Made by a program: the position numbers and the translations under genes
Part shown: piece after piece, positions 14,739 to 36,827 of the stretch
Layout of the letters: every line of letters starts with the position of its first letter
Numbering within the stretch: position 1 is the stretch's first letter
The notes under the pieces: model-generated
Database searches by the model: none
The model's input: only the letters and a program-made list of their open reading frames with translations
Told to the model about the DNA's origin: nothing
Source: an uncultured SAR116 cluster alpha proteobacterium
GTDB lineage: Bacteria > Pseudomonadota > Alphaproteobacteria > Puniceispirillales > Marisalimonadaceae
Assembly (NCBI GenBank): GCA_902615025.1
Contig: CACMNV010000004.1
Span: forward strand, 9,242 to 73,241
Direction of reading: 5' to 3'
DNA length: 64,000 nucleotides

Positions 14739-16088
14739 ATGTCATCATTAGTTATTAATTCAAAAATCTGGGGTGAAATGTTTGGTACCAGAGAAATGTC
14801 AGAAATTTTTTCAGATAAAAACACTATACAATATTACCTCGATGTTGAAGCTGCACTTGCTCGAGTTCAATCAAGATTAGGGATAATTCCTAAAACCTGT
14901 GGTTTAGAAATTTCAAAAGTTGCAAAAACAGATTGGATTGACTGGGAATTATTAGAAAAAAGAACTTCTATTGTAGGGTATCCAATTTTACCATTAGTTG
15001 AACAATTAAGCTTAAAAGTAAAAAAGAATTTCGGGCAATATTGCCATTGGGGAGCAACAACACAAGATATAATGGACACAGCTGATGTTTTACAAATTAG
15101 AGATGCTTTATCAATCTTATTATCTGATTTAGTTGGAATTAAAAAAGTTTTAAAAAAACTTGTAAAAAAGTACATCAACACACCAATGTCTGGAAGAACT
15201 CATTTACAGCATGCTTTACCTACTTCTTTTGGCTATAAATGTAGCACATGGTTATCTGGTATTGAGAGACATATTGATAGAATTAAAGAAATAAAAGAGA
15301 GATTATTTTACGTTTCTTTTTTTGGAGCTGCAGGAACTCTTGCCTCTTTAGGAGAGAAAAATGGGCTAAGGACAAAGAACGGACTTGCTAAAGAATTAAA
15401 ATTAAAATCTCCAGATGTGAGTTGGCATTCGATTAGAGATAATTTTTGTGAGTTATCATCTTGGATTTCTCTAGTTAGCGCATCATTAGGTAAAATTGCT
15501 TATGATGTTATGCTAATGATGCAAACTGAAGTACAAGAGGTTAATGAGCCTTTTATTCATGGTAGGGGTTCATCTTCTACTATGCCACAAAAAAGAAATC
15601 CAATTTCATCTGAAGTGATTCTAGCTTGTTCTAAACTTTTAAGAGAACATCACTCTGCTATGCTTGATAGTATGGTATTAGATCATGAAAGAGCTACTGG
15701 TCAATGGCATTTGGAGTGGTACACATTACCTAAAATGTTTATAATTGCCTCTTCTTCATTTCGATGCTCAAGAGAATTATTAGAAGGAATCCAAGTTGAT
15801 AAAAAGAAAATGATAAATAATTTAAATCATACTAACGGACTAATTTTAGCCGAATCTGTAATGATGAAAATTGCTCCAAAACTTGGAAGACAAATAGCTC
15901 ACGATCTAGTATATGATTGCTGTAGAAAATCAATAACTAATAACATGAGTTTACTTGAAACACTAATAATGGATGAAAAAATATCTAAAAATTTTAGAAG
16001 AGAAGAAATAGAATTTTGTTTAAATCCTAAGAATTATTTAGGTGCTGCACCCAGAATGGCAGAAGAACTTTTAAAAAATGTCAAATGA
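14739..16088 (+). CDS. class II fumarase/aspartase-superfamily lyase, 3-carboxy-cis,cis-muconate cycloisomerase (PcaB)-like / adenylosuccinate-lyase-like
   Basis: 449 aa. Has the superfamily signature GSSSTMPQKRNP and WGATTQD, HLQHALP segments. Confidence 0.8.
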   Translation: MSSLVINSKIWGEMFGTREMSEIFSDKNTIQYYLDVEAALARVQSRLGIIPKTCGLEISKVAKTDWIDWELLEKRTSIVGYPILPLVEQLSLKVKKNFGQYCHWGATTQDIMDTADVLQIRDALSILLSDLVGIKKVLKKLVKKYINTPMSGRTHLQHALPTSFGYKCSTWLSGIERHIDRIKEIKERLFYVSFFGAAGTLASLGEKNGLRTKNGLAKELKLKSPDVSWHSIRDNFCELSSWISLVSASLGKIAYDVMLMMQTEVQEVNEPFIHGRGSSSTMPQKRNPISSEVILACSKLLREHHSAMLDSMVLDHERATGQWHLEWYTLPKMFIIASSSFRCSRELLEGIQVDKKKMINNLNHTNGLILAESVMMKIAPKLGRQIAHDLVYDCCRKSITNNMSLLETLIMDEKISKNFRREEIEFCLNPKNYLGAAPRMAEELLKNVK

Positions 16089-16510
16089 AAAACTCTTTAA
16101 ACAAAAATGATTTTTATAATTTTTTAAGTGAGACTTTTCCTCAAGTTTCAAATCTTTTTAAAATAAGAAATTTAACTCCAGGAAATGTATCCTTAGAAAT
16201 GAGTATCAACTATGAACACTTAAGACCAGGTAATACTATATCTGGACCTACAATGTTTCTTTTAGCAGATGTGAGTTTTTATTTATCAATTTTATCTAAA
16301 GTAGGACTTGAGAGCTTAGCAGTTACAACTAATTGTTCAATTGATTTTTTAAGAAAACCATCTGAAAAAAATTTATATAGTCAAAATAGAATTTTAAAAA
16401 TTGGCAAATCTTTATGTGTGGGAGATGTTTTGATATATTCCGTTGATTTGAAAGATCCTGTAGCTCATGCATCATTAACATATTCTATTCCTCCCAAAAA
16501 ATCTTTTTAA
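16085..16510 (+). CDS. PaaI/hot-dog family acyl-CoA thioesterase
   Basis: 141 aa of PaaI-like size and pattern (GNTISGPTMFLLADV). ATGA overlap with the upstream gene. Confidence 0.7.
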   Translation: MKNSLNKNDFYNFLSETFPQVSNLFKIRNLTPGNVSLEMSINYEHLRPGNTISGPTMFLLADVSFYLSILSKVGLESLAVTTNCSIDFLRKPSEKNLYSQNRILKIGKSLCVGDVLIYSVDLKDPVAHASLTYSIPPKKSF

Positions 16511-16559
16511 TGAACAAAAATTCTGTTACGTTTTATTAAATTAAATATTGGAGATTTAG

Positions 16560-17369
16560 ATGAGCTTTGTGAAAACAGAAACAAATGGTCAGATTTTTGT
16601 AATCAGATTAAATAGACCTGAAAGATTAAATGCGCTTAGCACTGTTATTAGAGAGGGAATGGCTGAAGCTTTTACCAAGTTTCATAATGATAATAATTTA
16701 GAAGTTGCTATTTTAACTGGTACTGGAAGAGGTTTTTGCGCAGGCGAAGACATGAAAGAATCGTTAGATAGAGGAATTGCTGGGTCTCCAAAAGAGATGG
16801 TTAAAAAAGATTTAACAAACCCTTTTCAAGATGGGATTTTACAAAAACCTGTAATAGCAGCAGTAAATGGTTTTGCAATGGGAGGAGGTTTCATGCTTGT
16901 TGAAAGATGCGACTTAAGAATTGCAGTGAAAGAAGCTATTTTTGAAATGTCTGAAGCAAAAAGATGGTTGTTAGGAGGATATAATCACGGTCACTATGGT
17001 AACTTACCACATCCCGTAGCTACTGAAATGGCTTTTGGTTACAGAATAAATGCAGAAAGAATGTATCAAGTAGGTTTTGTTAATAGGCTAGTTGACCAAG
17101 AAAATTTAATGGAAAAAGCGCATTCAATGGCAAAGCATCTTCTTTCACTTCCACCAGCCTCAAGAGTTAATACTTTGTACATGATGAAACATATGGCACC
17201 TAAACTACCTTCAAATATAACACATTTAGCAGAAAAACTTCACCTTCATGGCGATACCGAAGATCGAATGGAAAGTAGAAGAGCTTTCGCTGAAAAAAGA
17301 GAACCAAATTATAAAGGATGGTTAAACCCAGATGACAGATACAATATGCCAAAGTTAGAAGAAGAATAA
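16560..17369 (+). CDS. enoyl-CoA hydratase/isomerase (crotonase) family protein
   Basis: 269 aa (RPERLNAL, GRGFCAGEDM, NGFAMGGGFMLVERCD). Confidence 0.85.
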   Translation: MSFVKTETNGQIFVIRLNRPERLNALSTVIREGMAEAFTKFHNDNNLEVAILTGTGRGFCAGEDMKESLDRGIAGSPKEMVKKDLTNPFQDGILQKPVIAAVNGFAMGGGFMLVERCDLRIAVKEAIFEMSEAKRWLLGGYNHGHYGNLPHPVATEMAFGYRINAERMYQVGFVNRLVDQENLMEKAHSMAKHLLSLPPASRVNTLYMMKHMAPKLPSNITHLAEKLHLHGDTEDRMESRRAFAEKREPNYKGWLNPDDRYNMPKLEEE

Positions 17370-17382
17370 AATAGGTCGTAAA

Positions 17383-18594
17383 ATGAATGCAATTAATGGA
17401 GCTTTATCAGGATTAAAAATAGTGGCTTGTTCTACAGCCCAAGCTGGAACTGTGCCATACATGCTCATGGCAGATTTAGGGGCAGATGTAATAAAGATTG
17501 AAACACCTGTCAAAGGAGATAATAACCGTAAATCAGGTTATTTATTTGGAGAAACTAGTTCTTTTTTTGAAACAAACAATCGTGGTGTTAAGAGTTTAAC
17601 TTTAAATCTTAAATCTGAAAAAGGTCAAAAAATTTTACATAAACTTGTAAAAGAAGCCGATATCTTTGGACAAAATTTTAGACCAGGTGTAGCAAAAAAA
17701 CTTAATTTTGATTATGAAACACTAGAAAAAATTAACCCTAAAATCATTTATGCATCTGTTTCAGCCTATGGTCCTGACGCGCCAGATGGTCATTTGCCAG
17801 GCACTGATGCTGTCGGACAGGCACTAAGCGGAATTGCAGAAGCTTATTCTATACCAGGGAACAATTTGAGAACTGGAGTTGCGTCTGTAGCTGACGAAAC
17901 CTGTGCAATTTTAACTTTTGGAGGAATACTTGCCGCATATATTAATGCGCAAAAAACAGGTAAGGGCCAAAAACTAGAAACTTCACTAGTTGGAAGCGCA
18001 TTCAGATTACAGGGCTGGACTATGACAACTTCCATGTGGAGTAATAAACCTCCAATTACTGGCGCAAGGATAAACGGAACAAGAGAACGTCCTGGTATTG
18101 CTGCGTGTTTTAATGACAAAAATGGCAAACCTTTTGCTCTTCAGTTAGAACCTAACAGTTGGTTAGATGCTATGAATGTTTTAGGCTTCAAAGACAATTT
18201 AGAAAAAGATGGTCTATTAGATTTAGGGTTGGCATTTGAATCAGAAGATAAAAAAACCGAGATCTTAGATAAACTAGCAGAGCTCTTTTCAACTAACGAA
18301 AGAGATCACTGGATTTCAATATTAAGAAAAGCTGACAAGATTTCAACCCATGTAAATACAATGTTGGAAGCTTCATTTGATCCAAATATAGTAAATAATA
18401 ATTATGTAACTGAAGTTTGGTATCCTGAATTAAACAAAAATTTAAAAGTACATGGAACTCCTTGGAAGTTTTCTAAAACTCCAGCAAATATTAAAAGAGC
18501 TCCTAAACTTGGTGAACACAATTCAGAAATTCTTAAAAATTTAGGATATACAGATGATGAAATTGAAAATTTAACAAACGAAAAAATTATTTAA
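17383..18594 (+). CDS. family III CoA-transferase
   Basis: 403 aa. LSGLKIVACSTAQAGTVPYMLMADLGADVIKIETP is the family III signature. Confidence 0.9.
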   Translation: MNAINGALSGLKIVACSTAQAGTVPYMLMADLGADVIKIETPVKGDNNRKSGYLFGETSSFFETNNRGVKSLTLNLKSEKGQKILHKLVKEADIFGQNFRPGVAKKLNFDYETLEKINPKIIYASVSAYGPDAPDGHLPGTDAVGQALSGIAEAYSIPGNNLRTGVASVADETCAILTFGGILAAYINAQKTGKGQKLETSLVGSAFRLQGWTMTTSMWSNKPPITGARINGTRERPGIAACFNDKNGKPFALQLEPNSWLDAMNVLGFKDNLEKDGLLDLGLAFESEDKKTEILDKLAELFSTNERDHWISILRKADKISTHVNTMLEASFDPNIVNNNYVTEVWYPELNKNLKVHGTPWKFSKTPANIKRAPKLGEHNSEILKNLGYTDDEIENLTNEKII

Positions 18595-19117
18595 TTTCTT
18601 CAAGCTCTTTTATAAACTTTTTAAAATTATCTACATAATGCTTAGATGATCTAGTCATATCTTTTATCATTTCTGGACTTAATTCTCTTACTGCTTTTGC
18701 TGGAGAGCCAATAATTAACATACCATCAGGAAATTCTTTGTTTTCAGTAACTAAAGCTCCTGCGCCAACAAGACAATTATTTCCGATTTTTGCATTGTTA
18801 AGTATAGTTGCTCCCATTCCTACCAAAGAATTATTTCCAATAGTACAACCGTGAATTATTGCATTATGGCCTATAGTACAATTATTTCCAATTGTTACAG
18901 GAGTATTTGGATCAACATGAATAATTGTATTTTCTTGAATATTAGTTTCATCTCCTATTTTGATGAGATCATTATCACCTCTTAAAACCGAACCAAACCA
19001 AATTCCAACATCCTGACCTAGAATAACATTACCTATGACATGCGCATCTGGTGCCACCCAATAAGAACCTTCAGAAGGTAATTGAGGCTCTTTTTTTCCT
19101 AAATTGTAAATCGGCAT
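18587..19117 (-). CDS. gamma-carbonic-anhydrase-like / left-handed beta-helix (PaaY/CaiE/YrdA family) protein
   Basis: Hexapeptide repeats throughout (IGNNCTIGHNAIIHGCTIGNNSLVGMGA). I prefer ATG at 19117, preceded by GGAGAAAAA, over the track start at 19180. The homologous region begins at MPIYNLG. Confidence 0.85.
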   Translation of the reverse strand: MPIYNLGKKEPQLPSEGSYWVAPDAHVIGNVILGQDVGIWFGSVLRGDNDLIKIGDETNIQENTIIHVDPNTPVTIGNNCTIGHNAIIHGCTIGNNSLVGMGATILNNAKIGNNCLVGAGALVTENKEFPDGMLIIGSPAKAVRELSPEMIKDMTRSSKHYVDNFKKFIKELEEIK

Positions 19118-19281: not shown

Positions 19282-20451
19282 TTAAAAAGGTAATCCAACG
19301 TAATTTTCGGCAAATGATTTTTGAGCGACTTCTGAATTTTCTAAATATTCAATTTCAGTCTCTTGCATTTTTTGGTCAAAATCAGACTGATTGGGAAATT
19401 TATGAAAAGTTACTGTCATCCACCAACTAAATCTAATGGCTTTCCAAACTCTATTTAATGCTCGTTTTGAATATTTAGATAACACCACTTTATTTTTTTC
19501 TTGGTAATATTCCTCTAGGGTCTCAACTAAATAGTTTACATCTGAAAAAGCTAAATTTAATCCCTTCGCACCTGTAGGTGGAACTATATGAGCAGCATCT
19601 CCAACTAAAAATAGATTTCCATAACTCATTGGTTCAACCACAAATGATCTTAAAGGAGCTAGTGACTTCTCTATAGATGGACCTGTTACGAGATTTTCTA
19701 AAGATTCTTCTGGTAATCTTTTTTTTATTTCATTCCAGAAACGATCATCACTCCATTCATTAGTTTTTTCATCAATTGAAGTTTGGATATAATATCTACT
19801 TAAATTTTCATTCCGCATAGAAGCCAGAGCAAAACCTGTTTTATGGTTTGCATAAATTAATTCTTCGCTTATTGGAGGTGTTTCAGATAAAATTCCTAAC
19901 CATGCAAAAGGGTAGACTCTCTCAAAGGTTTTAATTTTTTCTTTAGGAATTGTATTTCTTGAAACACCATGAAATCCATCACAACCTATTATGAAATCCG
20001 CATTAATTTTTGTTTCTTTATCAACGATCTTGCATGTGACGTATGGGCTACTTGTTTCAATTTCATGAATTTTTACATCTTTAACTGAATTAAAAACTTT
20101 ACCATTTTTTTTTTCTCTTAACTCATATAGATCTTTTGTCACTTCTGTTTGACCATAAACAGTGATTTTTTGATTAATCAATTTTTTAAAATCCATTCTA
20201 AATCCACGATTTTTTAAAGACAAAAAAATGCCATCATGAGAAAAACCTTCTTCCTTTATCCTTTTGAAAATTCCTGCCTTTTTAAGTAATTTTATGGTTC
20301 CTTCTTCTAAAACACCTGCTCTTATTCTGGATAAAACATGTTCTTTGGTGTGTTTTTCCAATACTAAACAATCAATATTAATATCACTTAAAAGTTGCGA
20401 CAATAGTAATCCTGAAGGCCCTCCTCCAATGATAAGAACTTGAGTTCTCAT
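19282..20451 (-). CDS. pobA: 4-hydroxybenzoate 3-monooxygenase
   Basis: 389 aa, colinear with Pseudomonas PobA along the whole length as I recall it (MRTQVLIIGGGPSGLLL, RIRAGVLE, VYGQTEVT, CDGFHG, ERVYPF.WLG, LIYANH, LRSFVVEPM, GDAAHIVPPTGAKGLNLA, ENYVGLP). Confidence 0.95.
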   Translation of the reverse strand: MRTQVLIIGGGPSGLLLSQLLSDINIDCLVLEKHTKEHVLSRIRAGVLEEGTIKLLKKAGIFKRIKEEGFSHDGIFLSLKNRGFRMDFKKLINQKITVYGQTEVTKDLYELREKKNGKVFNSVKDVKIHEIETSSPYVTCKIVDKETKINADFIIGCDGFHGVSRNTIPKEKIKTFERVYPFAWLGILSETPPISEELIYANHKTGFALASMRNENLSRYYIQTSIDEKTNEWSDDRFWNEIKKRLPEESLENLVTGPSIEKSLAPLRSFVVEPMSYGNLFLVGDAAHIVPPTGAKGLNLAFSDVNYLVETLEEYYQEKNKVVLSKYSKRALNRVWKAIRFSWWMTVTFHKFPNQSDFDQKMQETEIEYLENSEVAQKSFAENYVGLPF

Positions 20452-20573: not shown

Positions 20574-21893
20574 TTAATAAAAAGCCCATAACATTATTAG
20601 AGTAATACTTGGGAAAGAAAATAATAGTATTATTCTGATTATATCACTTAACAAAAAGGGTATAACGCCTTTAAAAGTATCAATTATAGGTACATCCTTA
20701 GCCATTTTATTAATTATAAATACATTCAGTCCAACAGGTGGAGTTATTAAACCAACTTCAACAACAACTAGAGTTAATATTCCAAACCAAATTGCTGTTT
20801 CTTCTGGAGATAATCCAAAATCAAGTGACATCACTAAAGGAAAAAAAACTGGGATTGTTAACAATATCATTGCTAAACTATCCATTAAACATCCTAAGAA
20901 CAGATATAAAATCATAATACATGCGACAACTATTAAAGGTTCTAAATTATTTTCTTTTGAAAATTCAGTTAATAAATTTGGAAGCTGAGTTAAAGCAATA
21001 AAAGAATTAAAAAATTCTGCACCTAATAAAACAAAAAATATCATTCCTGTTGTAACTGCTGTACTTTCAATAACCTCAATAAATGACTTTATATTAAATG
21101 ATTTATTTGTAATGGCTATAATACCGGTTCCTGCAGCACCAATTGCAGCACCTTCAGTAGGTGTAAAAAAACCCATGTAAATTCCACCAATCATGACAAC
21201 AAAGATCAAGATTATATGCCAAATATTTTTAAATAAATACATACGGTCTTTCCAAGTAACTCTATCTTTAATTGGTCCAGAATTTTGGTTTAATCTGACA
21301 TATAAACTAATTGCAACTACATAACCTAAGGCAGCAAGTAAACCAGGTATGAAAGCGCATAAAAACATTTTAGCTATGTTTTGTTCAGTCAGAATAGAAT
21401 AGATTATTAATATAACTGAAGGAGGAATTAAAATGCCTAGAGTTCCCCCCGCAGCTAATGCACCAGTACTTAGCGCTCCTGAATAGCCTAATCTTCTTAA
21501 TTCTGGCAAGGCTACTTTTCCCATGGTTGCTGCAGTTGCCAATGATGATCCACAAATTGCGCCAAATCCAGCACATGCTCCAACGGCAGCCATAGCAACG
21601 CCCCCTTTTCTATGTCCTAAACATGCACCGGCAAACTTAAACAATGCTTCACTCATACCAGCTTTAGATGCGAAATTTCCCATAAGTAAAAAAAGTGGAA
21701 TAACTGAAAGAGAGTAATTTGAAAATAAATGCCATGCACTTGTTTTAGCCAGAGACATAATAGGAAGCCAACCTGTAATTAAAATTGTACCAGTACATCC
21801 AACTAATAACATGGCTAAACCAATAGGAACTCTGAATGCTAAAAGTGAAAATAGAATTGGGAAAGCTAGAATACCAAGAATATATTTGTCCAT
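20574..21893 (-). CDS. TRAP transporter large permease (DctM family)
   Basis: 439 aa polytopic protein with DctM-like motifs (GAICGSSLATAATMG, ILIPPSV). Confidence 0.9.
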   Translation of the reverse strand: MDKYILGILAFPILFSLLAFRVPIGLAMLLVGCTGTILITGWLPIMSLAKTSAWHLFSNYSLSVIPLFLLMGNFASKAGMSEALFKFAGACLGHRKGGVAMAAVGACAGFGAICGSSLATAATMGKVALPELRRLGYSGALSTGALAAGGTLGILIPPSVILIIYSILTEQNIAKMFLCAFIPGLLAALGYVVAISLYVRLNQNSGPIKDRVTWKDRMYLFKNIWHIILIFVVMIGGIYMGFFTPTEGAAIGAAGTGIIAITNKSFNIKSFIEVIESTAVTTGMIFFVLLGAEFFNSFIALTQLPNLLTEFSKENNLEPLIVVACIMILYLFLGCLMDSLAMILLTIPVFFPLVMSLDFGLSPEETAIWFGILTLVVVEVGLITPPVGLNVFIINKMAKDVPIIDTFKGVIPFLLSDIIRIILLFSFPSITLIMLWAFY

Positions 21894-21895
21894 GA

Positions 21896-22426
21896 TTAAC
21901 TTCTCGATAGAACTAATTCATGATAAAATGTGTATAAACAGCATGCAGATAATAATCCAAATGAAAATGACACTGGCAAAAAGGGTATCCAAATTGGAAA
22001 TTGTAGTAACATAGTTTCTTCTTGATAATTATACATGTCTCTTGCTCCGAAAAACATCCTCCAAGTAAAGAACAAGGCTATAAGTCCATAAATAACTGAG
22101 CTAATACAATCTAAAAAAGCAATTTTTTTGAAATTTAATTTTGCAGTTATGAAATCTACAATAACATTACCTTTTTTTAAATGGCATAAAGGTAAAAAGG
22201 AAGATATCGCAATTGCACTACCAATTTCAACCAATTCAAAATCACCCACTAGAGGATTTAAGAGTATAATTCTACTTAATATTGAAATAAAGTTAATTAA
22301 AATAACAATGACAAGAATTATACCTCCTAAAATAGCCAAGATATAAGCTAAATCATATAAAAAACGACCAAATTTATCATTTGGTCGTTCTGTAAGTTCA
22401 TCAATAGGATTATTTGATGAACTCAT
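21896..22426 (-). CDS. TRAP transporter small permease (DctQ family)
   Basis: 176 aa with four TM segments. Lies between the DctP and DctM genes with 2-4 nt gaps. Confidence 0.75.
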   Translation of the reverse strand: MSSSNNPIDELTERPNDKFGRFLYDLAYILAILGGIILVIVILINFISILSRIILLNPLVGDFELVEIGSAIAISSFLPLCHLKKGNVIVDFITAKLNFKKIAFLDCISSVIYGLIALFFTWRMFFGARDMYNYQEETMLLQFPIWIPFLPVSFSFGLLSACCLYTFYHELVLSRS

Positions 22427-22430
22427 TTAA

Positions 22431-23459
22431 TTATAGTGATTTTTCATATTTTGAAATTAAGCTTTTTGCTGTATCTAAAAGTTTTTGAGCGTCTAAACCT
22501 TTTTTATTAGTACTCTTAATCCAATCTTCAGTTACTTTTTTTCCAGCAGCTTTCATTTTAGCTAGTTCTTCACCTTGTAAAGTAAAAAACTGTCCGCCAG
22601 CATTTACAGCTAATTTTCTTGCAGGAACTTCAAAGCCGTCCCAAAGTTTACCTGCCTCTTTTGCTAAAGATAAACCCGAATTATTGTCAATAACCTTTTT
22701 TTGTGATGGTGATAAACTCTCATACTTTGCTTTATTCATTATGAATAAAAAAGGTGTTGTATATAAACCTCTATTACCTGCAACATTAGTATGTGCTTTT
22801 GTTAATTCTTGCAATTTAAATGAAGGCATAATTTCCCAAGGCACAACCATTCCATCAATTACTCCTTTTGACAATGACGGGGCAACTTTTGGAACTGGCA
22901 TCCCGACTGGAGTGGCACCCATACTTTTAAGCATAGTTGTAATTACTCTTGTAGGACCTCTCATCTTCATCCCTTGAAAATCACCAATAGACTTAATCAG
23001 CTTATTTTTTGTATGTATCATACCAGGAGCGTGCACATGAACTGTTAAGATTTTATAATCTTTTAGATCTTCTGCTCCTATGGTTTCTACATACTCCTGA
23101 ACCGCTTGTGATGTTATTACTGATTTTGTTGGCAAAAATGGTAATTCAAAAGCTTCAAGTCTTGGAAATCTTCCTGGTGTATAACCCGCAACTGTCCAAA
23201 CTATGTCTACTACCCCTTCTCTAACTTGATCAACTAGCTGGGGTGGCTTTCCTCCAAGTTGCATAGAATAATACATCTCGGTTATAATTTCACCATTTGA
23301 TTCTTTTTTTACTTTTTCTGCCCACGGCAAAACAAATTTTGCATTAGAGTTAGCTGGTGCAGGAACAAATGTATGAAATTTCAAAGTTACCTTATCAGCT
23401 AGTGCAGAAAATGAAAAAAAAGTTAATGATAAAATAATCATTTTTATAAGCATTTTCAT
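22431..23459 (-). CDS. TRAP transporter substrate-binding protein (DctP family)
   Basis: 342 aa with a signal peptide (..FSALA/DK). DctP core with MKMRGPT (conserved Arg). Confidence 0.85.
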   Translation of the reverse strand: MKMLIKMIILSLTFFSFSALADKVTLKFHTFVPAPANSNAKFVLPWAEKVKKESNGEIITEMYYSMQLGGKPPQLVDQVREGVVDIVWTVAGYTPGRFPRLEAFELPFLPTKSVITSQAVQEYVETIGAEDLKDYKILTVHVHAPGMIHTKNKLIKSIGDFQGMKMRGPTRVITTMLKSMGATPVGMPVPKVAPSLSKGVIDGMVVPWEIMPSFKLQELTKAHTNVAGNRGLYTTPFLFIMNKAKYESLSPSQKKVIDNNSGLSLAKEAGKLWDGFEVPARKLAVNAGGQFFTLQGEELAKMKAAGKKVTEDWIKSTNKKGLDAQKLLDTAKSLISKYEKSL

Positions 23460-23571: not shown

Positions 23572-24549
23572 ATGGCAATAAAAGCTCTTTCATATTTAGG
23601 TGTTACATCAGAAAAAATCCAAGATTGGTCAGATTATGCAACAAAAAATCTTGGCATGCAGGAAATTGATAAAACAAAAAACTCTTTAATGCTAAGAATG
23701 GATGATCAAAAACAAAGGTTTTCCATTTCGAATGATGGTGGTGAGGGTTTATCATTTTTAGGGTGGGAAGTAGAAAACAAAAGTGACTTAGATAATTTTG
23801 CATCAATATTAGATCAAAATAATGTAAAAGTCTTTAGAGGACAAAAGTTTCTTTGTGATAAAAGATTCGTTGAAGATTTACTTTATTTTAAAGATCCTGC
23901 TGGAAATCAAATTGAATTAATATTTAATCCATTTAAAACTGATGAAGAGTTTAAACCTGGAAGAGCAATATCTGGCTTCAAAACTGGAATTTGTGGTTTA
24001 GGTCACGCCGTATTGCATACTGACAATATAGAACCACTCGTAAAATTTTATCGGGATTTATTGGGTTTTAAAGTGAGTGATTTTAGTTTTGAACCTATTA
24101 GACTTCACTTTTTTCATGTCAATGAAAGACATCATAGTTTTGCGCTTGTTGAAACAGGTAAAGTTGGTTTTCATCATTTTATGGTAGAATACAATAATTT
24201 GGATGATGTTGGACAGGGCTATGATCTTCTTCAATTTGAAAGCAATAAAATTGCATATACCTTGGGTAGACACACTAATGACTATATGACATCATTTTAT
24301 TCATATTCACCGTCAGGATTTTTTGTAGAAAATGGTTGGGGAGGAAGACACATTGATCCAAACACGTGGAAACCAGAATTGACTAATGTTGGACCTAGTT
24401 TTTGGGGACATGAAAGACTTCATCTTCCAAAAGACCAAAGACTAAAATTTAGAGATAAAAGGATGGAAATAGCAGCTAATGGAATTCAAGCGCCTTTGAT
24501 AATTGATTGTCCATGGCTTTATCAAAATCAATCCAAAAAAGATGCATAA
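23572..24549 (+). CDS. type I extradiol ring-cleavage dioxygenase (BphC/HsaC-like, two-domain VOC fold)
   Basis: 325 aa. Candidate 2-His-1-carboxylate ligands sit in GLGHAVLH, FHHFMVE and GFFVENGWG, with about 30 aa of C-terminal extension. Confidence 0.8.
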   Translation: MAIKALSYLGVTSEKIQDWSDYATKNLGMQEIDKTKNSLMLRMDDQKQRFSISNDGGEGLSFLGWEVENKSDLDNFASILDQNNVKVFRGQKFLCDKRFVEDLLYFKDPAGNQIELIFNPFKTDEEFKPGRAISGFKTGICGLGHAVLHTDNIEPLVKFYRDLLGFKVSDFSFEPIRLHFFHVNERHHSFALVETGKVGFHHFMVEYNNLDDVGQGYDLLQFESNKIAYTLGRHTNDYMTSFYSYSPSGFFVENGWGGRHIDPNTWKPELTNVGPSFWGHERLHLPKDQRLKFRDKRMEIAANGIQAPLIIDCPWLYQNQSKKDA

Positions 24550-26005
24550 TACTAAATGTAATGTTTTAATTGTTGGTTTTGGTCCGACTGGATCAGTGCT
24601 TGCTAATTTATTGTCAAAGTACAATATCACTATCCATATTTTAGAAAAAGAAAACGAAATTTATAATTTACCTAGAGCTGTTCATTTTGATGATGAAATT
24701 ATGAGAACATTTAAGAGTATCGGTATTTTTAAAAAATTTTTAAAAAAAACTATTATCAACAAGGGAACAAAATTTGTTGATGAATTTGATAATCTAATTT
24801 TAGATTGGCCGAGACCGAAAAAAATTACAGAAAATGGTTTTTACCCAAGTTATAGATTTCATCAGCCAGATCTTGAAAAAATTTTAAGAAAAAACTTAAT
24901 TAAAAATAAAAAAGTTAAAATTAGTTATAATTCTGAGTTGTTAGAAATATCAGAAAAAGGTGATTTTATTTCTGCAAAATATTTAGATAAAGTCAGTAAT
25001 TCTTTTCAAATAATTAATGCAGATTATGTTGTAGGATGTGATGGAGCTAACTCTTTAGTTAAAGAATATATTAGTCAAGAAGTAATAGATTTTGGTTTTC
25101 AAGAAAAATGGGCAGTTATTGATTTAATTATGAAACAAAATAAAAATAACTTACCTGACAGAACTATACAATATTGCAGTAAAAAAACTCCTGCAACTTA
25201 CTGTAGAAATGTTGGCAGAAGAAGAAGATGGGAATTTTCTTTAGATAAAAATTCAGTAGATAAAGAAATTTTAAATGATGATAAAATTTGGCATTTTTTA
25301 TCTAAATGGATTACTCCAGAAGATGCAATCATAGAAAGAAAAACAATTTATACTTTTAAGTCTTTGATTGCAAAAAAATGGAGAAAAGGAAGAGTATTCA
25401 TTGCTGGAGATGCTGCTCATTTGTCACCTCCATTTATGGGTCAAGGAATGTGTTCTGGAATTAGAGACGTGTCAAATCTATTTTGGAAAATAGCTTATAG
25501 CTGTAATTTTGGACATAAAGAAAAGCTTTTAAACACTTATGAGAGTGAGAGATTAAAAAATGTAAAAGAATATATCATAACCACAATTAATATGGGAAGA
25601 TTGTTAAATTCAATTGGTGAAACAAATGTTTCTAATACGGTAAAAGAAGAAAAAGATGGATCTAAAAAAATGACTTCTATAAAACCACCTCTAGGTCCTG
25701 GATTAGGAAATAATAAAGATAAATTGAGAGGAAAAATTTTTCCTTATATAAATTTACAAAATTCAAACGTTTCAAATTTTGACTCGGAATTTGAAACAGA
25801 GTTAGTTTTGCTATCAAAACAAAACGTAGATAATAAAAAAATCAAGCATATAAATGTAAACAAATATGAAGAAGTAATGAAAGTTTTCAACAGACTAAAT
25901 ATTAGTGCTTTGATTTTAAGACCTGATAGATTTATTTTAAGTTCATTAAATGATAATTCAAAAATAAATGATTTTATCGAAAAATCGACATTGCAATTTG
26001 GTTGA
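24542..26005 (+). CDS. FAD-dependent aromatic hydroxylase (MhpA-like class A flavoprotein monooxygenase)
   Basis: Contains VLIVGFGPTGSVLANLL...LPRAVHFDDEIMRTF, DG.NS and GDAAHLSPPFMGQGMCSGIRD. I prefer ATG 24542, which overlaps the upstream stop as ATGCATAA, over the track start at 24503. Confidence 0.85.
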   Translation: MHNTKCNVLIVGFGPTGSVLANLLSKYNITIHILEKENEIYNLPRAVHFDDEIMRTFKSIGIFKKFLKKTIINKGTKFVDEFDNLILDWPRPKKITENGFYPSYRFHQPDLEKILRKNLIKNKKVKISYNSELLEISEKGDFISAKYLDKVSNSFQIINADYVVGCDGANSLVKEYISQEVIDFGFQEKWAVIDLIMKQNKNNLPDRTIQYCSKKTPATYCRNVGRRRRWEFSLDKNSVDKEILNDDKIWHFLSKWITPEDAIIERKTIYTFKSLIAKKWRKGRVFIAGDAAHLSPPFMGQGMCSGIRDVSNLFWKIAYSCNFGHKEKLLNTYESERLKNVKEYIITTINMGRLLNSIGETNVSNTVKEEKDGSKKMTSIKPPLGPGLGNNKDKLRGKIFPYINLQNSNVSNFDSEFETELVLLSKQNVDNKKIKHINVNKYEEVMKVFNRLNISALILRPDRFILSSLNDNSKINDFIEKSTLQFG

Positions 26006-26853
26006 AAATTATGAAATTAAGTGTATTGCAAGCAGGTTTTAATTTAGATCATATTGCTCTTGAAAGTCCTGATCCAAATGAGTTGTCAAAATTTTATAAA
26101 AATTTCATTATGATGGAACATGTTGAGAAAAAGAATCAGGAAATAATTTGCGAAGGAAAAAATAGAAAAGTCATATTAATCAAAGGAAAAAAAAACAAGC
26201 TTTCTTATGCAGGGTTTTCGTGCAGAAATAGAAAAAATCTTGAACAATTTAAAAACTTTATAATTGCAAATAAAGTCCCATTTTCAAAATTTGTAAATAA
26301 TCACCTAGAAAAAGGGGCTTTCTCAATAATTGACCCTGATAAAAATATAATATCCTTCGGAATTCGAAAAAAAACAAAAATTGCATTTAAAAATAAATTT
26401 TGTATGCCTTTACAACATTTAACTTTTTCTAGTAGAGATGTTGAACAATTTGAGCATTTTTATTGTAACATGTTAGGTTTTAAAACTACAGACAGAGTTA
26501 TTCATAAGAATAGAAGTTTAGCTACAATTTTTTTAACTTCAAATCACGAACACCACACTATAGCCTGTTTTAAATCTAATAAAATTGGTATTGATCACCA
26601 TTCATATGAAGTTAGTCAATGGGAAAATATTAAAATTTTGTGTGATTATTTTTCACAAAATAATATTAAAATAATATGGGGACCCGGAAGACATGGTCCT
26701 GGAAATAATTTGTTTATATTTATTGAAGATTTGGACAAAAATTGGTTAGAATTTTCTGCAGAATTAGAAATAATTCATGATAGAAAAGTAAATGAATGGC
26801 CACAATCTGAAAAAACTTTAAATTTATGGGGCAAAGGAATATTAAGGTCTTAA
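26002..26853 (+). CDS. second two-domain VOC/extradiol dioxygenase-like protein
   Basis: 283 aa. Candidate ligands in LQHLTFSS, IDHHSYEV and WLEFSAE. The start is either TTG 26002 (overlapping the upstream stop) or ATG 26011. Confidence 0.7.
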   Translation: MKIMKLSVLQAGFNLDHIALESPDPNELSKFYKNFIMMEHVEKKNQEIICEGKNRKVILIKGKKNKLSYAGFSCRNRKNLEQFKNFIIANKVPFSKFVNNHLEKGAFSIIDPDKNIISFGIRKKTKIAFKNKFCMPLQHLTFSSRDVEQFEHFYCNMLGFKTTDRVIHKNRSLATIFLTSNHEHHTIACFKSNKIGIDHHSYEVSQWENIKILCDYFSQNNIKIIWGPGRHGPGNNLFIFIEDLDKNWLEFSAELEIIHDRKVNEWPQSEKTLNLWGKGILRS

Positions 26854-29335: not shown

Positions 29336-29347
29336 TTAGGACTATTT

Positions 29348-32191: not shown

Positions 32192-33198
32192 ATTTCTTTA
32201 TTACAAAAATCACCAAATAACATTGCTTTGAATTTTGGTCCTTTCTCAAAAAAGTTTCCCCTATTAACTACCCATTTTACATGGTCTTTATAATTTGGAT
32301 CTGAATTAATTTTTATTCCCCATAGACCTTCAGCCTCATTAGGAATTGCAGAATATCTTACATCAATTATTAGATCTTTGTCTTTGTCATACCCAAGGTA
32401 CTCTTGTGAAAACCAGCTAAACCTTAAAATATCATTGAATTGCTTACTATCTTTATTTAAATTTTTATAATGAATATTAGTATCAAATTTTTCAATAGTT
32501 TCTCCAAAGCAAAACTTTGTCTTTCCAATCAGATTTACAGAATCTACATAATATTTACCCTCATATAAATATACTATTTTCCACAAAAAAAGATTTCCCA
32601 AACTCGGTTTAACAGTAATTTTTTTAAAGTCGTGATTTCTGTATTTAGCAAGATTTTTTGCTTCTTTTAAGGCTACTGAACTTTGAAAAAACCCAAATCC
32701 CAAATACAAAAAAATCCAAATAAAGCTGATCATATTTAAGAACTTTTTTTTCAAAATAACAGCTAAAATCATTAAGATTAAAATCGGTACAGTCAAAAGA
32801 GGATCAATTATTGAAATACTATTCCAAGCAAATCGATAATCTGAAAATGGCCAAAATAACTGAGTTCCATAACTCGTGCATGCATCTAGTAAAGCATGGG
32901 TAGAATATCCAACAAAAGCAAAAATGTAGTTTTCAAAAAAAGTTACATATTTTTTAACAAAATTATAAGTAAATAAAGTAACAATTAGTGCTCCAAAAGG
33001 TATAAATATAAAAGAATGAGTGAATTGTCTGTGATATTCTAAACTTAGCAATGGATCATAAGAAGATTTAATAAATACATCAAGATCTGGAGCTAACCCA
33101 CTTATAATTCCAATGACTGTTGCAACAGTTAATTTTTTTTTAGATGAAAAAAACTGTGATAATAGTCCACCAAAAGTACCTTGAGATATTGGATCCAT
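32188..33198 (-). CDS. membrane-bound metal-dependent hydrolase (YdjM/DUF457-like) with extra C-terminal domain
   Basis: 336 aa. N-terminal half has DPISQGTFG...APDLD...HRQFTHS motifs and TM helices. Confidence 0.65.
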   Translation of the reverse strand: MDPISQGTFGGLLSQFFSSKKKLTVATVIGIISGLAPDLDVFIKSSYDPLLSLEYHRQFTHSFIFIPFGALIVTLFTYNFVKKYVTFFENYIFAFVGYSTHALLDACTSYGTQLFWPFSDYRFAWNSISIIDPLLTVPILILMILAVILKKKFLNMISFIWIFLYLGFGFFQSSVALKEAKNLAKYRNHDFKKITVKPSLGNLFLWKIVYLYEGKYYVDSVNLIGKTKFCFGETIEKFDTNIHYKNLNKDSKQFNDILRFSWFSQEYLGYDKDKDLIIDVRYSAIPNEAEGLWGIKINSDPNYKDHVKWVVNRGNFFEKGPKFKAMLFGDFCNKEI

Positions 33199-33275
33199 AC
33201 AATTATATTTTTGTTATTAAATTATTGACGATATCTATTCTTATACACTACCTTATATAAAGGTACAGTAGTAAA

Positions 33276-34877
33276 ATGTCTAAAATTTCTTATGATGCAA
33301 TTATAATTGGAGCAGGCTTTTCAGGTTTATATCAACTTTATAAGTTGAGAGATAAATTGAAACTAAACTGTAGAGTATTAGAAAAAGGTTCTGGCATAGG
33401 TGGAACATGGTACTGGAACAGATACCCAGGTGCCAGATGTGACACTGAAAGCCACGCTTATACCTATTTTTTTTCTGAAGAAATTTTCAAGGAATGGGAA
33501 TGGAGCGAACGCTATCCAGGCCATGCGGAAATTCGTAAATATTTAAACTACGTTTCCAACAAATATTCATTAAAAGATGATATTCAACTTGATACTGAAG
33601 TAATTTCAGCGACATTTGACGAGGAAAATAATTCATGGATTTTAAAAACAAAGAATGATGAAATATTTAAATGTAAATTTTTAATTACGGCAGTTGGATG
33701 TATTTCAACAACAAACATTCCAAACATAAAAGGTTTAAATAAGTTTAATGGGAATTATTACCATACTGGGAATTGGCCTAAAAACGATGTAGATTTTTCT
33801 GGCAAACGGGTTGGTCAAATCGGTACTGGATCAACTGGAATTCAAGCTGCACCTGTAATTGCTGAAAAGGCAAAATACCTGACAGTTTTTCAAAGAACTC
33901 CTAACTTTAGTGTGCCTGCCAGAAATAAACCTCTTTCAAAAGAATTCAAAGAGTATGTTAAAAATAATTATGATGAACTAAAGTCAATTGTAAAAGAGAC
34001 ACCTAATGGACATGCTTTTCGGATTAGTAAAAAACTTACTTTTGATGTTCCCAAAAAAGAAAGAGAAAAAAAATATGAGGAATTTTGGGAAAAAGGGGGA
34101 CTGCAATTTAGAGGTGTTTTTAAAGATATAATTACAAACAAAAAAGCTAATGACTCTGCATCAAATTTTTTAAAGAAAAAAATTAGTCAAGTTGTTAAAA
34201 ATAGAGAGTTTGCAAAAATATTAACAAACTTTGATCACCCATATGGATGCAAAAGACCTCCAATAGATACCAACTATTTTGAAACCTATAATAAAGATAA
34301 TGTTCATCTAGTTGATATTAAAAATGATCCTATAATTGAAATAGATAAAAAAGGCATTAAAACAAAAAATAATTATTTTAAATTAGATACGATTGTTTTT
34401 GCAACTGGTTATGATGCAATGACAGGTACACTTATAAATTTAAATATAACTGGCGAGAATAATTTAAATTTAAAAGATTATTGGAATGAAGGTCCAAAAA
34501 CTTACCTAGGATTACAAATACCAGGCTTCCCAAACATGTTTACCATCACTGGACCAGGAAGTCCTTCAGTATTAACAAATATGCCAACTGCAATTGAACA
34601 ACATGTTGAATGGGTAACAGATTGTATATCATACATGATTGAAAATAATTTCAATAAAGTCTCTACATCTGAAAAAAATTCACTTGAATGGGGAAAGCAA
34701 GTTAAAGAAGCTGCAGATAAAACATTGCTTCCTACTGTTAAACATTCGTGGTATTTGGGAGCTAATATTCCAAATAAGCCTCGAGTGTTTATGCCTTATG
34801 CTGGTGGACTACCTACTTATACAAAAATTTGTGAAAATGTAAAAAACAATAACTACGAAGGCTTTGCCTTTAGTTGA
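33276..34877 (+). CDS. type I Baeyer-Villiger monooxygenase (cyclohexanone/phenylacetone monooxygenase-like)
   Basis: 533 aa. Has GAGFSGL (FAD), the BVMO fingerprint FNGNYYHTGNWP (FxGxxxHxxxWP) and GTGSTG (NADPH). Confidence 0.9.
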   Translation: MSKISYDAIIIGAGFSGLYQLYKLRDKLKLNCRVLEKGSGIGGTWYWNRYPGARCDTESHAYTYFFSEEIFKEWEWSERYPGHAEIRKYLNYVSNKYSLKDDIQLDTEVISATFDEENNSWILKTKNDEIFKCKFLITAVGCISTTNIPNIKGLNKFNGNYYHTGNWPKNDVDFSGKRVGQIGTGSTGIQAAPVIAEKAKYLTVFQRTPNFSVPARNKPLSKEFKEYVKNNYDELKSIVKETPNGHAFRISKKLTFDVPKKEREKKYEEFWEKGGLQFRGVFKDIITNKKANDSASNFLKKKISQVVKNREFAKILTNFDHPYGCKRPPIDTNYFETYNKDNVHLVDIKNDPIIEIDKKGIKTKNNYFKLDTIVFATGYDAMTGTLINLNITGENNLNLKDYWNEGPKTYLGLQIPGFPNMFTITGPGSPSVLTNMPTAIEQHVEWVTDCISYMIENNFNKVSTSEKNSLEWGKQVKEAADKTLLPTVKHSWYLGANIPNKPRVFMPYAGGLPTYTKICENVKNNNYEGFAFS

Positions 34878-34878
34878 T

Positions 34879-35352
34879 TTAATCATTTGCTATATTATTG
34901 ATTTCAGAAATTTTTTTTCTGAGGTTTGTTATTCTATTCGACAACTCACCACCAACCTTTGAGTCCCCTTTTAAAGATGATAATAATTCAGATACTTCAT
35001 TAGCAAGTTGATTAATTTTACTATTAGCGTCCATTAAACGAACCTGAGTTTTTCTAATCAAAGCATTTAAAACAACATCATTTTTCTTTAATTTTACAAA
35101 ATAATCTTTTGGAATAATGCTTGCGACAACTTTTTGGGAACAAGCTTTAGCTGTAACTGTTCTCTTAGTTCCTAAAAGCAAAGAAGTTTCTCCGAAAACT
35201 TCGCCTACTCCTAATCTGTTTAACTGAAATTTATCTTTTGTTTCTATATTTACATAACCTTCTAATATCAAATAAGCTTCCTCAGGAATATTTCCAATTT
35301 CATAAATTAATTCTCCTGGGTTCCAAATTATTGAATTGTCATTTCTTTGCAT
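34879..35352 (-). CDS. stand-alone cyclic-nucleotide-binding domain protein with coiled-coil tail (no HTH)
   Basis: 157 aa. Phosphate-binding cassette FGETSLLLGTKRTVTAKA. The C-terminal ~50 aa look heptad/coiled-coil-like, and no DNA-binding domain is visible. Confidence 0.8.
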   Translation of the reverse strand: MQRNDNSIIWNPGELIYEIGNIPEEAYLILEGYVNIETKDKFQLNRLGVGEVFGETSLLLGTKRTVTAKACSQKVVASIIPKDYFVKLKKNDVVLNALIRKTQVRLMDANSKINQLANEVSELLSSLKGDSKVGGELSNRITNLRKKISEINNIAND

Positions 35353-35364
35353 AATTTTTTTTGT

Positions 35365-35481
35365 CTATCCCAAAGGAGGCATCCAAAAGACATATCCCCA
35401 AAAAACTACGTAACAGAAAAAAAGAAAATATGCGAAAAGGCCCATTGGCTTATTATCTTTTGTTCTTTCATTTTCTTCCAA
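35365..35481 (-). CDS. candidate small membrane protein (38 aa), unannotated
   Basis: Manual translation gives (TTG)MEENERTKDNKPMGLFAYFLFFCYVVFWGYVFWMPPLG*. AAGGAGA lies just upstream (short spacing), and an internal ATG (MGLFAY...) is an alternative start. It fills most of an otherwise 196-nt spacer between pcaG and the cNMP-binding gene. Confidence 0.3.
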   Translation of the reverse strand: MEENERTKDNKPMGLFAYFLFFCYVVFWGYVFWMPPLG

Positions 35482-35548
35482 TGTCTCCTTTATGTAGGAT
35501 TGGTAGTGTCGAATAATCAAGTTTGACCTAGGCATAATCAATTATAAC

Positions 35549-36121
35549 TTAAAATTCAAAAAAAATCGTCTCTTTTTTGCCTTGAAGATAAATATTAAAA
35601 ATAAAATTTTTTTTATCTTCCGTGTAAGGAATTAAAGTGTTTAATCTATCTTCAATTTTTATATTATTTAACACTAAATCATTTTTTAAATCATTTTCCA
35701 GAAAATACATGCGAGTAATTAATGGCCTGTTCATTCCTCTTGCCACAATCCAAAATGTAATATAAGAAGCAGAAAGAGATCCATCTGTATTAATTTTATT
35801 TCCTGGCCGAATAGTTTTAAGTTGATACTCTCCAGTTTTAAGGTCTGTGACTATTCTTGCGAATCCTTGATTACTTGAATAGTTTCCATTTACGTCACAT
35901 TGCCATGTTTCTATCATCGCATCTATTATTGGTTCGTTATTCCCATCATATATTTTTCCTTTAATATTTATGGCTTCGTTATCGGAAATATCTTGGAAAG
36001 GTATCAGACCCAATTCACTCTTAAAAATATTGATCCCTGTTATTCTAGGAGTACATCCAATATGTAAGAAAGGACCAGCAGTTTGAGAAGGTGTATCTAT
36101 CAACTTTTTAGGTTCATTCAT
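35549..36121 (-). CDS. pcaG: protocatechuate 3,4-dioxygenase alpha subunit
   Basis: TPSQTAGPFLHIG near the N-terminus and a C-terminal ...ETIFFEF, colinear with Pseudomonas PcaG. I prefer ATG 36121 (MNEPKKLIDTPSQT), 4 nt after the pcaH stop, over the track start at 36151 inside pcaH. Confidence 0.9.
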   Translation of the reverse strand: MNEPKKLIDTPSQTAGPFLHIGCTPRITGINIFKSELGLIPFQDISDNEAINIKGKIYDGNNEPIIDAMIETWQCDVNGNYSSNQGFARIVTDLKTGEYQLKTIRPGNKINTDGSLSASYITFWIVARGMNRPLITRMYFLENDLKNDLVLNNIKIEDRLNTLIPYTEDKKNFIFNIYLQGKKETIFFEF

Positions 36122-36125
36122 AATA

Positions 36126-36827
36126 TTACAAGCCTTCTCTTTTGTTTTCAAAGAAAGTTTGTTCTTTACCTCTCAAGACTATATCAAATCTATAACCAAG
36201 AATTTTTTCATTTTCAGTTTTTGAAAGGTCTAATCTTCCAATAAGTAATTTTCTAGCATTAATATCAGGTATAGAATTAACCATGGGACAAGATTTGATT
36301 AATGGATCACCTTCAAAATACATTTGAGTAATTAGTCTTTGGAGAAACATTGACCCAAACAAAGAAAAATGAATGTGTCTTGGTCTCCATTCAGTACCTC
36401 TATTTGGATAAGGATAAGCACCAGGTTCAATCGTTTTAAATATATAATATCCGTCTGAAGAGGTTATAAATCTTCCACAACCTCCAAAGTTCTCATCTAA
36501 CTTTATATTACTAGGATCATTTTGATGTCTATATTTTCCTCCTGCATTTGCTTGCCAAATTTCAATCAAAACATTTTTTAAATTATTTCCATTTTCATCT
36601 TTAACAAATCCATGTACAAATATTTCTTGCCCTAAAGGTTTTTCTCCAATTTTAGAAAAATTTAAAGTAAGATCATTGTCATTTTTATTTATAATTTTTT
36701 CACTAAAAAGTGGTCCTGACATTTCTGAACTAGAAGAATTTATCCATAAAGGCTCCTTGTTTGGTGATCTGGAGATACTTGATTTGTAGTCATGAAATTT
36801 TCTAAGAGGCTGATGTTTTTTAATCAT
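36126..36827 (-). CDS. pcaH: protocatechuate 3,4-dioxygenase beta subunit
   Basis: 233 aa. WRPRHIHFSLFG, ITQMYFEGDPLI..CP and YRFDIVLRG...FFEN match PcaH. Confidence 0.95.
   Translation of the reverse strand: MIKKHQPLRKFHDYKSSISRSPNKEPLWINSSSSEMSGPLFSEKIINKNDNDLTLNFSKIGEKPLGQEIFVHGFVKDENGNNLKNVLIEIWQANAGGKYRHQNDPSNIKLDENFGGCGRFITSSDGYYIFKTIEPGAYPYPNRGTEWRPRHIHFSLFGSMFLQRLITQMYFEGDPLIKSCPMVNSIPDINARKLLIGRLDLSKTENEKILGYRFDIVLRGKEQTFFENKREGL

Follow-up and report, generated by a model that had tools for sequence, protein, structure and literature searches.

Upper protocatechuate genes in a low-GC SAR116 genome, and where the steps that seem to be missing may lie

How could a bacterium equipped to make protocatechuate and to open its ring gain anything from doing so, when the genes for the rest of the pathway do not appear to be there? 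The question is raised by a 64-kb stretch of DNA (the window, by which we mean the whole of the stretch that was analyzed) from contig 4 of a SAR116 metagenome-assembled genome (MAG). A sequence-only reading had found in it pobA, pcaHG, a PcaB-like lyase, and a QsuB-type gene, had seen none of the genes for the later steps of the beta-ketoadipate pathway, and had left two ways out: either those steps are encoded elsewhere or 3-carboxymuconate takes a noncanonical route, perhaps through a coenzyme A (CoA) operon at 12.0-18.6 kb or through PrpD paralogues. We argue here that the window is probably the upper half of an ordinary, scattered protocatechuate branch, with the missing steps lying outside the window or in the unassembled part of the genome. 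One oddity remains, the lyase at 14739-16088, which on its sequence and distribution is most likely a divergent 3-carboxy-cis,cis-muconate cycloisomerase (CMLE, after its other name, carboxymuconate-lactonizing enzyme).

The question is larger than one contig. SAR116 bacteria are among the most abundant of the surface ocean, many aromatics from plants and algae are funneled through protocatechuate, and the completeness of the pathway decides whether such compounds yield carbon or are only detoxified. The source genome (1.52 Mb, 76 contigs, 74% complete) belongs to the low-GC branch of SAR116, in the AAA536-G10 or “Ca. Levibacter” family, whose relatives include MED-G100. We searched 61 genomes of relatives (the source MAG, 13 congeners, 23 other members of the family, and 24 from the order), using one congener, G002, which is in four contigs, as the reference for mapping open reading frames (ORFs) onto the source MAG, and we added a sample of 300 alphaproteobacterial genomes, each at least 90% complete. 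The window itself (G+C ~30%) has 74 ORFs of at least 100 residues; 70 of them were scanned against Pfam, the other four being short ORFs nested antisense within longer genes, and 28 were scanned against NCBIfam.

Results

The genes that would make protocatechuate, open its ring, and close the product into a lactone are dispersed across about 40 kb of the window:

19282-20451, minus strand: pobA, 4-hydroxybenzoate 3-monooxygenase (TIGR02360, 609.1 bits, cut-off 538.7)
35549-36151, minus strand: pcaG, protocatechuate 3,4-dioxygenase alpha subunit (TIGR02423, 157.8 bits, cut-off 126.25)
36126-36827, minus strand: pcaH (TIGR02422, 293.0 bits, slightly under the cut-off of 296.4)
54175-55872, minus strand: candidate QuiC/QsuB-like fused dehydroshikimate dehydratase (NF042435, 436.2 bits against 1200; Pfam AP_endonuc_2 plus Glyoxalase_5, the latter like 4-hydroxyphenylpyruvate dioxygenase)
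14739-16088, plus strand: PcaB-like lyase of what we call clade A (best NCBIfam models, those for CMLE: NF006554, 451.8 bits against 595; TIGR02426, 329.0 against 355.75)

On TIGR02422 the PcaH orthologues of sister genera score 295-305 bits, and a protein annotated with the AP_endonuc_2 and Glyoxalase_5 domains adjoins the pca cluster of a Deinococcus plasmid. What the window does not offer is equally plain: among the 70 ORFs scanned, Pfam gave no match to the carboxymuconolactone-decarboxylase, family I CoA-transferase, or thiolase families and none to LysR, IclR, or AraC regulators. The regulators that the window does have are a GntR/FCD protein (56977-57636) and a cyclic-nucleotide (cNMP)-binding protein (34879-35352). 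There is a single alpha/beta hydrolase:

50481-51326, plus strand: alpha/beta hydrolase with a GHDWGG Asp elbow at residue 96 (haloalkane dehalogenase model, 101 bits against 241)

It reaches only 33.3 bits on the PcaD model and is not a PcaD. Thus far the sequence-only reading holds up: profile searches agree with its gene calls (PcaH, the lyase, and the QuiC-like protein under their cut-offs), the four families of later enzymes and any regulator of the PcaR, PcaQ, or PobR type are indeed lacking in the window, and the dispersal of the genes and the hydrolase motif are as described.

Are the later steps, then, anywhere? Two of them have candidates on other contigs of the source MAG. A PcaC-like gene (C50:512-889) scores 148.5-149.4 bits against 155.7, with PcaC as its top family; it lies between a permease and MgtE on a contig of 3.7 kb, and its product is 71% identical to the Levibacter orthologue and 36-42% identical to PcaCs encoded in operons. 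A PcaF thiolase (C23:3252-4448) reaches 641.8 bits, over the cut-off of 597, on a model that covers PaaJ too. The PcaD model has 18 matches in the source MAG, all under its cut-off of 255.85. Relatives are richer. pcaH is present in 34 of the 36 other family genomes and pcaI in 32 (31 over the cut-off), including 11 of the 13 congeners; in G002, pcaI (328.6 bits) and pcaJ (289.1 bits, cut-off 243.55) are adjacent. Genes like pcaD reach 232-239 bits in five of the 13 congeners and 303-317 bits, over the cut-off, in seven family genomes of other genera.

Why should the source MAG lack what its congeners have? When the ORFs of G002 were mapped onto it, none of the 18 from the pcaIJ region had an orthologue there (8 without a match and 10 at 26-50% identity), nor had any of the 19 from the PcaD-like region (17 without a match and 2 at 27-33%), and each of these missing regions is about 18 kb long. 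In the control, the pcaHG region mapped with 23 of 23 ORFs and the lyase region with 22 of 22, at 65-99% identity. For the PcaC region, 6 of 13 ORFs matched, at 90-100%, up to the ends of C50 and C12, and the seven upstream ORFs were unmatched. It is whole regions that are gone, not single genes, so the absence is what one expects of a bin that is 74% complete, and we think that pcaIJ and the best PcaD are lacking from the source MAG in all probability only because the regions that carry them were left unassembled or unbinned. That the lower pathway is encoded elsewhere, the first way out left by the sequence-only reading, is therefore supported, with PcaC-like and PcaF proteins on other contigs and with PcaIJ and a near-cut-off PcaD in congeners.

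In G002 the PcaD candidate (239.6 bits against 255.85) is found in an operon (L050:6217-10790) together with a luciferase-like oxidoreductase, two unassigned proteins, and an FAD monooxygenase, and a xanthine-dehydrogenase-type molybdoenzyme adjoins it. In family f3 of the order (loci L028-L033 and L014-L019) the arrangement is pcaD-pcaC-pcaH-pcaG followed by a protein of 286-290 residues with a weak match to family I CoA-transferases (33-45 bits), and the PcaB model gives no lyase more than 200 bits in any f3 genome.

There remains the lactonization and with it the lyase. Lyases of its class (~324-341 bits on the PcaB model) are found in 31 of the 37 family genomes and elsewhere in the order in one genome only (309.8 bits); in each family genome the matches to the PcaB model are this lyase and a PurB-like one and nothing else. 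In the sample of 300 alphaproteobacteria, 50 genomes have pcaH and 40 have a match to the window lyase (E at most 1e-60). For 30 genomes that best match is 31-42% identical, and in 26 of the 30 it lies within 7 kb of pcaH, that is, it is the gene of a canonical operon (one of the 26, G271, is unpublished, and no result rests on it). In three genomes the match is 54-56% identical, the level of clade A. All three have pcaH (331-358 bits, over the cut-off), unlinked to the lyase, and none has another match to the PcaB model except a PurB-like one (162-189 bits). It is because every one of these near-complete, lyase-bearing genomes has pcaHG and, PurB-like proteins apart, no other PcaB that we consider the lyase most likely to be a CMLE; the three represent two genera only, and so their statistical weight is modest. 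A genome in a single contig (G305) has pcaC-pcaH-pcaG without pcaB or pcaD, and its lyase is 1.39 Mb away.

What does the protein itself say? For comparison we took as authenticated the seven PcaBs that are encoded inside pca operons, those of Stutzerimonas, Acinetobacter, Azospirillum, Hymenobacter, Deinococcus, Phaeobacter, and Alloyangia; a Streptomyces “pcaB” was not counted, lying as it does in a cluster of secondary-metabolite type. Homologues of clade A (54-59% identity) score 351.8-370.6 bits on TIGR02426, values that lie on both sides of its cut-off of 355.75, and the lower score of the window lyase fits its skewed amino acid composition, flagged as atypical by the tree builder. Lyases linked on plasmids to GntR and transporter genes make up another clade, B (bootstrap 99, Shimodaira–Hasegawa-like approximate likelihood-ratio test [SH-aLRT] 95), in a tree whose backbone is not resolved. 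At the position of the superfamily's catalytic His, the window lyase and clades A and B have His, and the authenticated PcaBs have Trp (three), Arg (two), Leu (one), and, in Deinococcus, His; the window lyase and three of the seven retain the Glu partner. Yang et al., in 2004, reportedly described Trp153 and Ala289 at the His and Glu positions of the Pseudomonas putida CMLE; Trp and Ala are what we see there in the rows for Stutzerimonas, Acinetobacter, and Azospirillum. Read from sequence, the His/Glu motif leans against CMLE function without excluding it. For a time, with four of four PcaBs lacking the His, its retention was taken to exclude that function; this argument was dropped, as the Deinococcus PcaB keeps it.

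Company, too, was consulted as a guide. Seven homologues outside SAR116 (55-59% identity, from other proteobacteria) have heterogeneous neighbors and no pca genes, and guilt by association there did not yield a functional label. Plasmid homologues at 46-50% identity, which belong to the other clade and have GntR and transporter contexts, were set aside.

Within SAR116 the company is close. The lyase is the fourth gene of an operon in which neighboring genes overlap or abut (assignments from Pfam and NCBIfam):

12016-18594, plus strand: the seven-gene operon
12016-13563, plus strand: gene 1, thiamine pyrophosphate (TPP) enzyme
13588-13941, plus strand: gene 2, ORF of 117 residues
13928-14737, plus strand: gene 3, crotonase
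14739-16088, plus strand: gene 4, the lyase
16085-16510, plus strand: gene 5, hotdog thioesterase
16560-17369, plus strand: gene 6, crotonase
17383-18594, plus strand: gene 7, family III CoA-transferase

Crotonase, lyase, and thioesterase stay together in nine of nine SAR116-type loci, and the second crotonase and the transferase are kept in eight of the nine; the TPP enzyme and the operon's pobA and transporter neighbors are confined to the window's genus. One may speculate that the operon shortens aromatic side chains. Its 117-residue product begins Met-Pro and has relatives (37-43% identity) upstream of the crotonase in SAR116 loci; no such ORF was found beside the lyases of clades A or B in 16 other loci searched. 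A tautomerase with a “Pro1” was considered for it and rejected, Pfam giving no match even at E values up to 5.

On either side of this operon are genes that belong to the same neighborhood, beginning with a transporter:

20574-23459, minus strand: tripartite ATP-independent periplasmic (TRAP) transporter genes dctM, dctQ, and dctP (Pfam DctM, DctQ, DctP), upstream of pobA on the same strand

The adjacency of the TRAP genes to pobA is retained in two loci of the same genus (L054 and L055), and the system is probably an importer of aromatic acids. At 23572-26853 an MhpA-type 3-(3-hydroxyphenyl)propionate hydroxylase (466.6 bits, cut-off 390) stands between two extradiol dioxygenases; the Pfam and NCBIfam scans showed no downstream meta-cleavage genes in the window. 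The region from 12 to 37 kb reads as a catabolic island for aromatic acids. Elsewhere in the family there is a third gene resembling intradiol dioxygenases (G000:C22:9852-10418), with about 79 bits on the PcaH model and a frame of about 278 residues; in six family genomes (G000, G001, G005, G006, G010, and G017) it has one in-frame TAA, and this stop may be conserved, may part two neighboring ORFs, or may be artefactual.

Divergent from the lyase operon, at the start of the window, is a set of genes that touches on the PrpD paralogues:

7048-11819, minus strand: itaconate/methylsuccinate-type cluster (family III CoA-transferase, RipB/Ich-like hydratase, RipC/Ccl-like lyase, MmgE/PrpD protein, and FAS1-type dehydratase)
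3862-6926: TRAP system, downstream of that cluster
1133-2515: a further MmgE/PrpD paralogue
3-1112: acyl-CoA dehydrogenase

On NCBIfam models the cluster scores 232.8 bits against 340 (RipB_Ich) and 162.9 against 375 (RipC_Ccl). The genes from 3 to 11819 are conserved across the SAR116 family and match a cluster type described in PMC12290011 (in the part consulted), and this match would account for the PrpD paralogues without calling on carboxymuconate.

An itaconate cluster next to a lyase brings to mind Tad1, the trans-aconitate decarboxylase of Ustilago maydis. The residues of Tad1 probed by mutagenesis are, according to the portion of PMC11880804 consulted, Q152, S320, S321, R360, T362, W365, and W369; in our alignment all seven are conserved in the window lyase, and they are largely present in the authenticated PcaBs too. 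Two positions tell the enzymes apart, being His and Glu in the window lyase and Asn and Val in Tad1. On a plasmid of Bradyrhizobium sp. CB82 (pCB82_1, L084:3770-9359), a protein of the lyase family is the last gene of an operon with dctA, a MaoC-type dehydratase, a CaiB CoA-transferase, and a CoA-ester lyase. It carries a Tad1 signature (Asn in the place of the catalytic His, Cys in that of its Glu partner, and WEIEW) and groups apart from the window's clade in the tree. From its sequence it is this protein, rather than that of the window, that has the look of a bacterial trans-aconitate decarboxylase, in an operon that would lead from trans-aconitate through itaconate to acetyl-CoA and pyruvate; a limited literature search turned up no bacterial enzyme of Tad type.

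Clade B has contexts of its own. In Burkholderia and Paraburkholderia (L087:6104-9714 and L088:6083-9763) a clade-B lyase and a dicarboxylate symporter form a two-gene unit with a divergent GntR gene alongside and no pca genes nearby; the records vary between pcaB and “adenylosuccinate lyase family,” and the pcaB label is doubtful. A Ralstonia homologue (L086), whose record carries no annotation in the table, groups with them. On a plasmid of Roseivivax marinus (L085:3817-13751) the clade-B lyase shares an operon with a TAXI-TRAP transporter, a class II fumarase, and an enolase-superfamily protein, 3.7 kb from a LysR-pcaC-pcaH-pcaG cluster that is without pcaB and pcaD.

Discussion

Put together, the pieces would make a familiar path. 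4-Hydroxybenzoate, probably brought in by the TRAP system at 20574-23459, would be hydroxylated by PobA, and dehydroshikimate may also be turned into protocatechuate by the QuiC-like protein; PcaHG would open the ring to 3-carboxy-cis,cis-muconate; and the lyase, as a divergent subtype of PcaB, would lactonize it. A PcaC-like protein (that of C50), a serine hydrolase of PcaD type, a family I CoA-transferase of PcaIJ type, and PcaF (that of C23) could then carry the product to succinyl-CoA and acetyl-CoA. The PcaC-like protein is a member of its family, but that it and the PcaD-like one work in this route is our inference, and the ScoAB/PcaIJ-family pair would take 3-oxoadipate.

How far should one trust so ordinary an answer? 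A good deal weighs against it, beginning with the lower pathway. Neither pcaI nor pcaJ was found in the whole of the source MAG at its 74% completeness, and the model that finds them in relatives describes a subfamily that includes ScoAB. The best PcaD match of the source MAG, at the end of contig C3 and with a GLSMGG elbow, reaches 120-122 bits against 255.85. The near-cut-off PcaD of the genus occurs in just those five congeners, which is below what one expects of a core gene at these completeness values, so that the PcaD-like operon may be accessory in the genus and may serve another catabolic route; PcaD is the weakest step of the pathway there. The PcaC-like protein, for its part, is orthologous to a copy that families without pcaHG keep too, and it is nearer (45-47% identity) to copies in SAR116 families that have no pcaHG or that have a second copy. 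The remaining objections concern the lyase, and most of them are also the case for a rival that we regard as unlikely and yet worth keeping in mind: that the lyase is no CMLE and acts with the CoA operon on some other carboxylate, for example, through elimination of a leaving group whose departure requires protonation, which would leave lactonization unfilled in the family and make protocatechuate cleavage a matter of detoxification, of cross-feeding, or of a promiscuous enzyme. The lyase is under both PcaB cut-offs. Among Protein Data Bank (PDB) entries it scores higher with 3c8t (444.6 bits) and Tad1 (404.6) than with the CMLEs of Acinetobacter (329.4), P. putida (316.1), and Agrobacterium (155.9). 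All seven authenticated PcaBs fall in one clade (bootstrap 86, SH-aLRT 88), and the lyase is outside it, in clade A (80 and 98). It retains the superfamily His that six of the seven have lost and, with the Glu, the pair typical of eliminating lyases. It is encoded in one operon, conserved as described, with CoA-ester enzymes foreign to the classical pathway. None of the seven outside homologues lies beside pca genes, and of five further MAGs with a clade-A lyase (their completeness is not established) two are without a pcaH over the cut-off and three have one. A preprint on SAR116 (bioRxiv 10.64898/2026.07.17.739263), in the sections seen, itself allows division of labor or promiscuous enzymes. 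Against all this stand the three near-complete genomes, each with pcaHG and no other PcaB, where only 50 of the 300 sampled genomes have pcaH at all; the PcaB of Deinococcus, which is in a pca operon and has both His and Glu; and the occurrence of the lyase outside SAR116 without the CoA genes, which makes it independent of them.

The same operon could be read more boldly, as a new CoA-dependent route in which its enzymes, or the PrpD paralogues, take up 3-carboxymuconate or the lactone in place of PcaC, PcaD, and PcaIJ, with the lyase not performing the classical lactonization. Two crotonases, a thioesterase, and a family III CoA-transferase are, after all, joined to the lyase by translational coupling; conservation of the operon extends through the family, and in the window's genus it adjoins pobA; and of the steps in that genus PcaD is the weakest. 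We find this improbable. Candidates for PcaC, PcaIJ, and PcaF exist in the lineage, and a replacement is not needed; the adjacency to pobA is found in one genus only; the PrpD and CoA genes at 7048-11819 match the known itaconate/methylsuccinate type (PMC12290011, again in the part consulted); and no chemistry connects enzymes of these types with carboxymuconate. The second way out left by the sequence-only reading is thus unneeded and has no direct support. Could the lyase instead be a bacterial trans-aconitate decarboxylase of Tad1 type, its itaconate degraded by the divergent Ict/Ich/Ccl-type cluster? Its higher score with Tad1 than with the CMLEs of Acinetobacter and P. putida, the seven conserved residues (PMC11880804, as far as consulted), the cluster next door, and the Bradyrhizobium homologue in its dctA/MaoC/CaiB/CoA-ester-lyase operon all speak for it. 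The conserved residues, however, are largely those of authenticated PcaBs as well, the Bradyrhizobium protein is outside the window's clade, and the window lyase has His and Glu at the positions occupied by Asn and Val in Tad1 and by Asn and Cys in the Bradyrhizobium protein. On this last ground we rejected the Tad1 assignment, despite the PDB score and the neighboring cluster, and consider it very improbable indeed.

We return, then, to the scattered but ordinary branch, in which the apparent gap is the product of the limits of the window and the incompleteness of the MAG. Of the full pcaCDIJF set and standard PcaB against which the sequence-only reading had measured that gap, the source genome supplies PcaC-like and PcaF proteins; it yielded no pcaIJ and no good pcaD, and the lyase is not a standard PcaB. 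Two cautions follow the finding about: the steps of PcaB, PcaC, and PcaD rest on proteins that are atypical or below threshold, and “pcaB” is an inconsistent annotation across the whole clade of these lyases. The finding is real as an observation, ordinary in meaning, and largely in print already. Its remaining interest is in the lyases of clade A, which could be a second, unrecognized type of bacterial CMLE, in bacteria whose pca genes are scattered.

How does all this compare with what is known? For every step this SAR116 lineage has the same enzyme families as the beta-ketoadipate clusters of Pseudomonas/Stutzerimonas, Acinetobacter, and the roseobacters. Its PobA, PcaG, and PcaF exceed their curated cut-offs, and a few percent separate its PcaH, PcaC, and PcaD from theirs. 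The differences are of arrangement and of one enzyme: here the pca genes are strewn around the chromosome and not gathered as in the pcaIJFBDC or pcaDCHGB operons of the comparison plasmids; they have no regulator of the PcaR, PcaQ, or PobR type alongside; and their PcaB is of a different clade. As far as orthology calls go, the dispersed pathway of this lineage is already in print, in the preprint just cited (Coelho, Borton and Thrash, July 2026). According to the sections seen, some members of SAR116 subclade II could use pcaGHBCDIJ/fadA, subclade III is without pcaIJ and has gctAB in the pcaGH operon instead, and pcaC occurs throughout subclade I. We found the same three patterns independently in families f1, f3, and f2/f4, which, to judge from those patterns, would be subclades II, III, and I, respectively, and the 286- to 290-residue protein of f3 fits the gctAB substitution that these sections report. 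The preprint works with orthology calls, and the sections seen are silent on “pcaB” as a separate clade of CoA-operon lyases and on PcaC and PcaD proteins below threshold.

For the lyase the known systems are structures. The bacterial CMLEs (1RE5 of P. putida, 1Q5N of Acinetobacter, and 2FEL of Agrobacterium) and the window lyase belong to a common fold family, that of the fumarase/aspartase superfamily, and share both the SS loop GSSxMPxKxNP and an ER..W..EW segment with the catalytic Arg. The best PDB match, 3c8t, has His and Glu as the window lyase does; it was deposited as “Fumarate lyase” and gives no functional label, which leaves Tad1 (PDB 9H3I) as the highest-scoring characterized structure. 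From the CMLEs themselves the window lyase differs by its 30-38% identity, by its separate clade, and by the His that it keeps in GRTHLQ.

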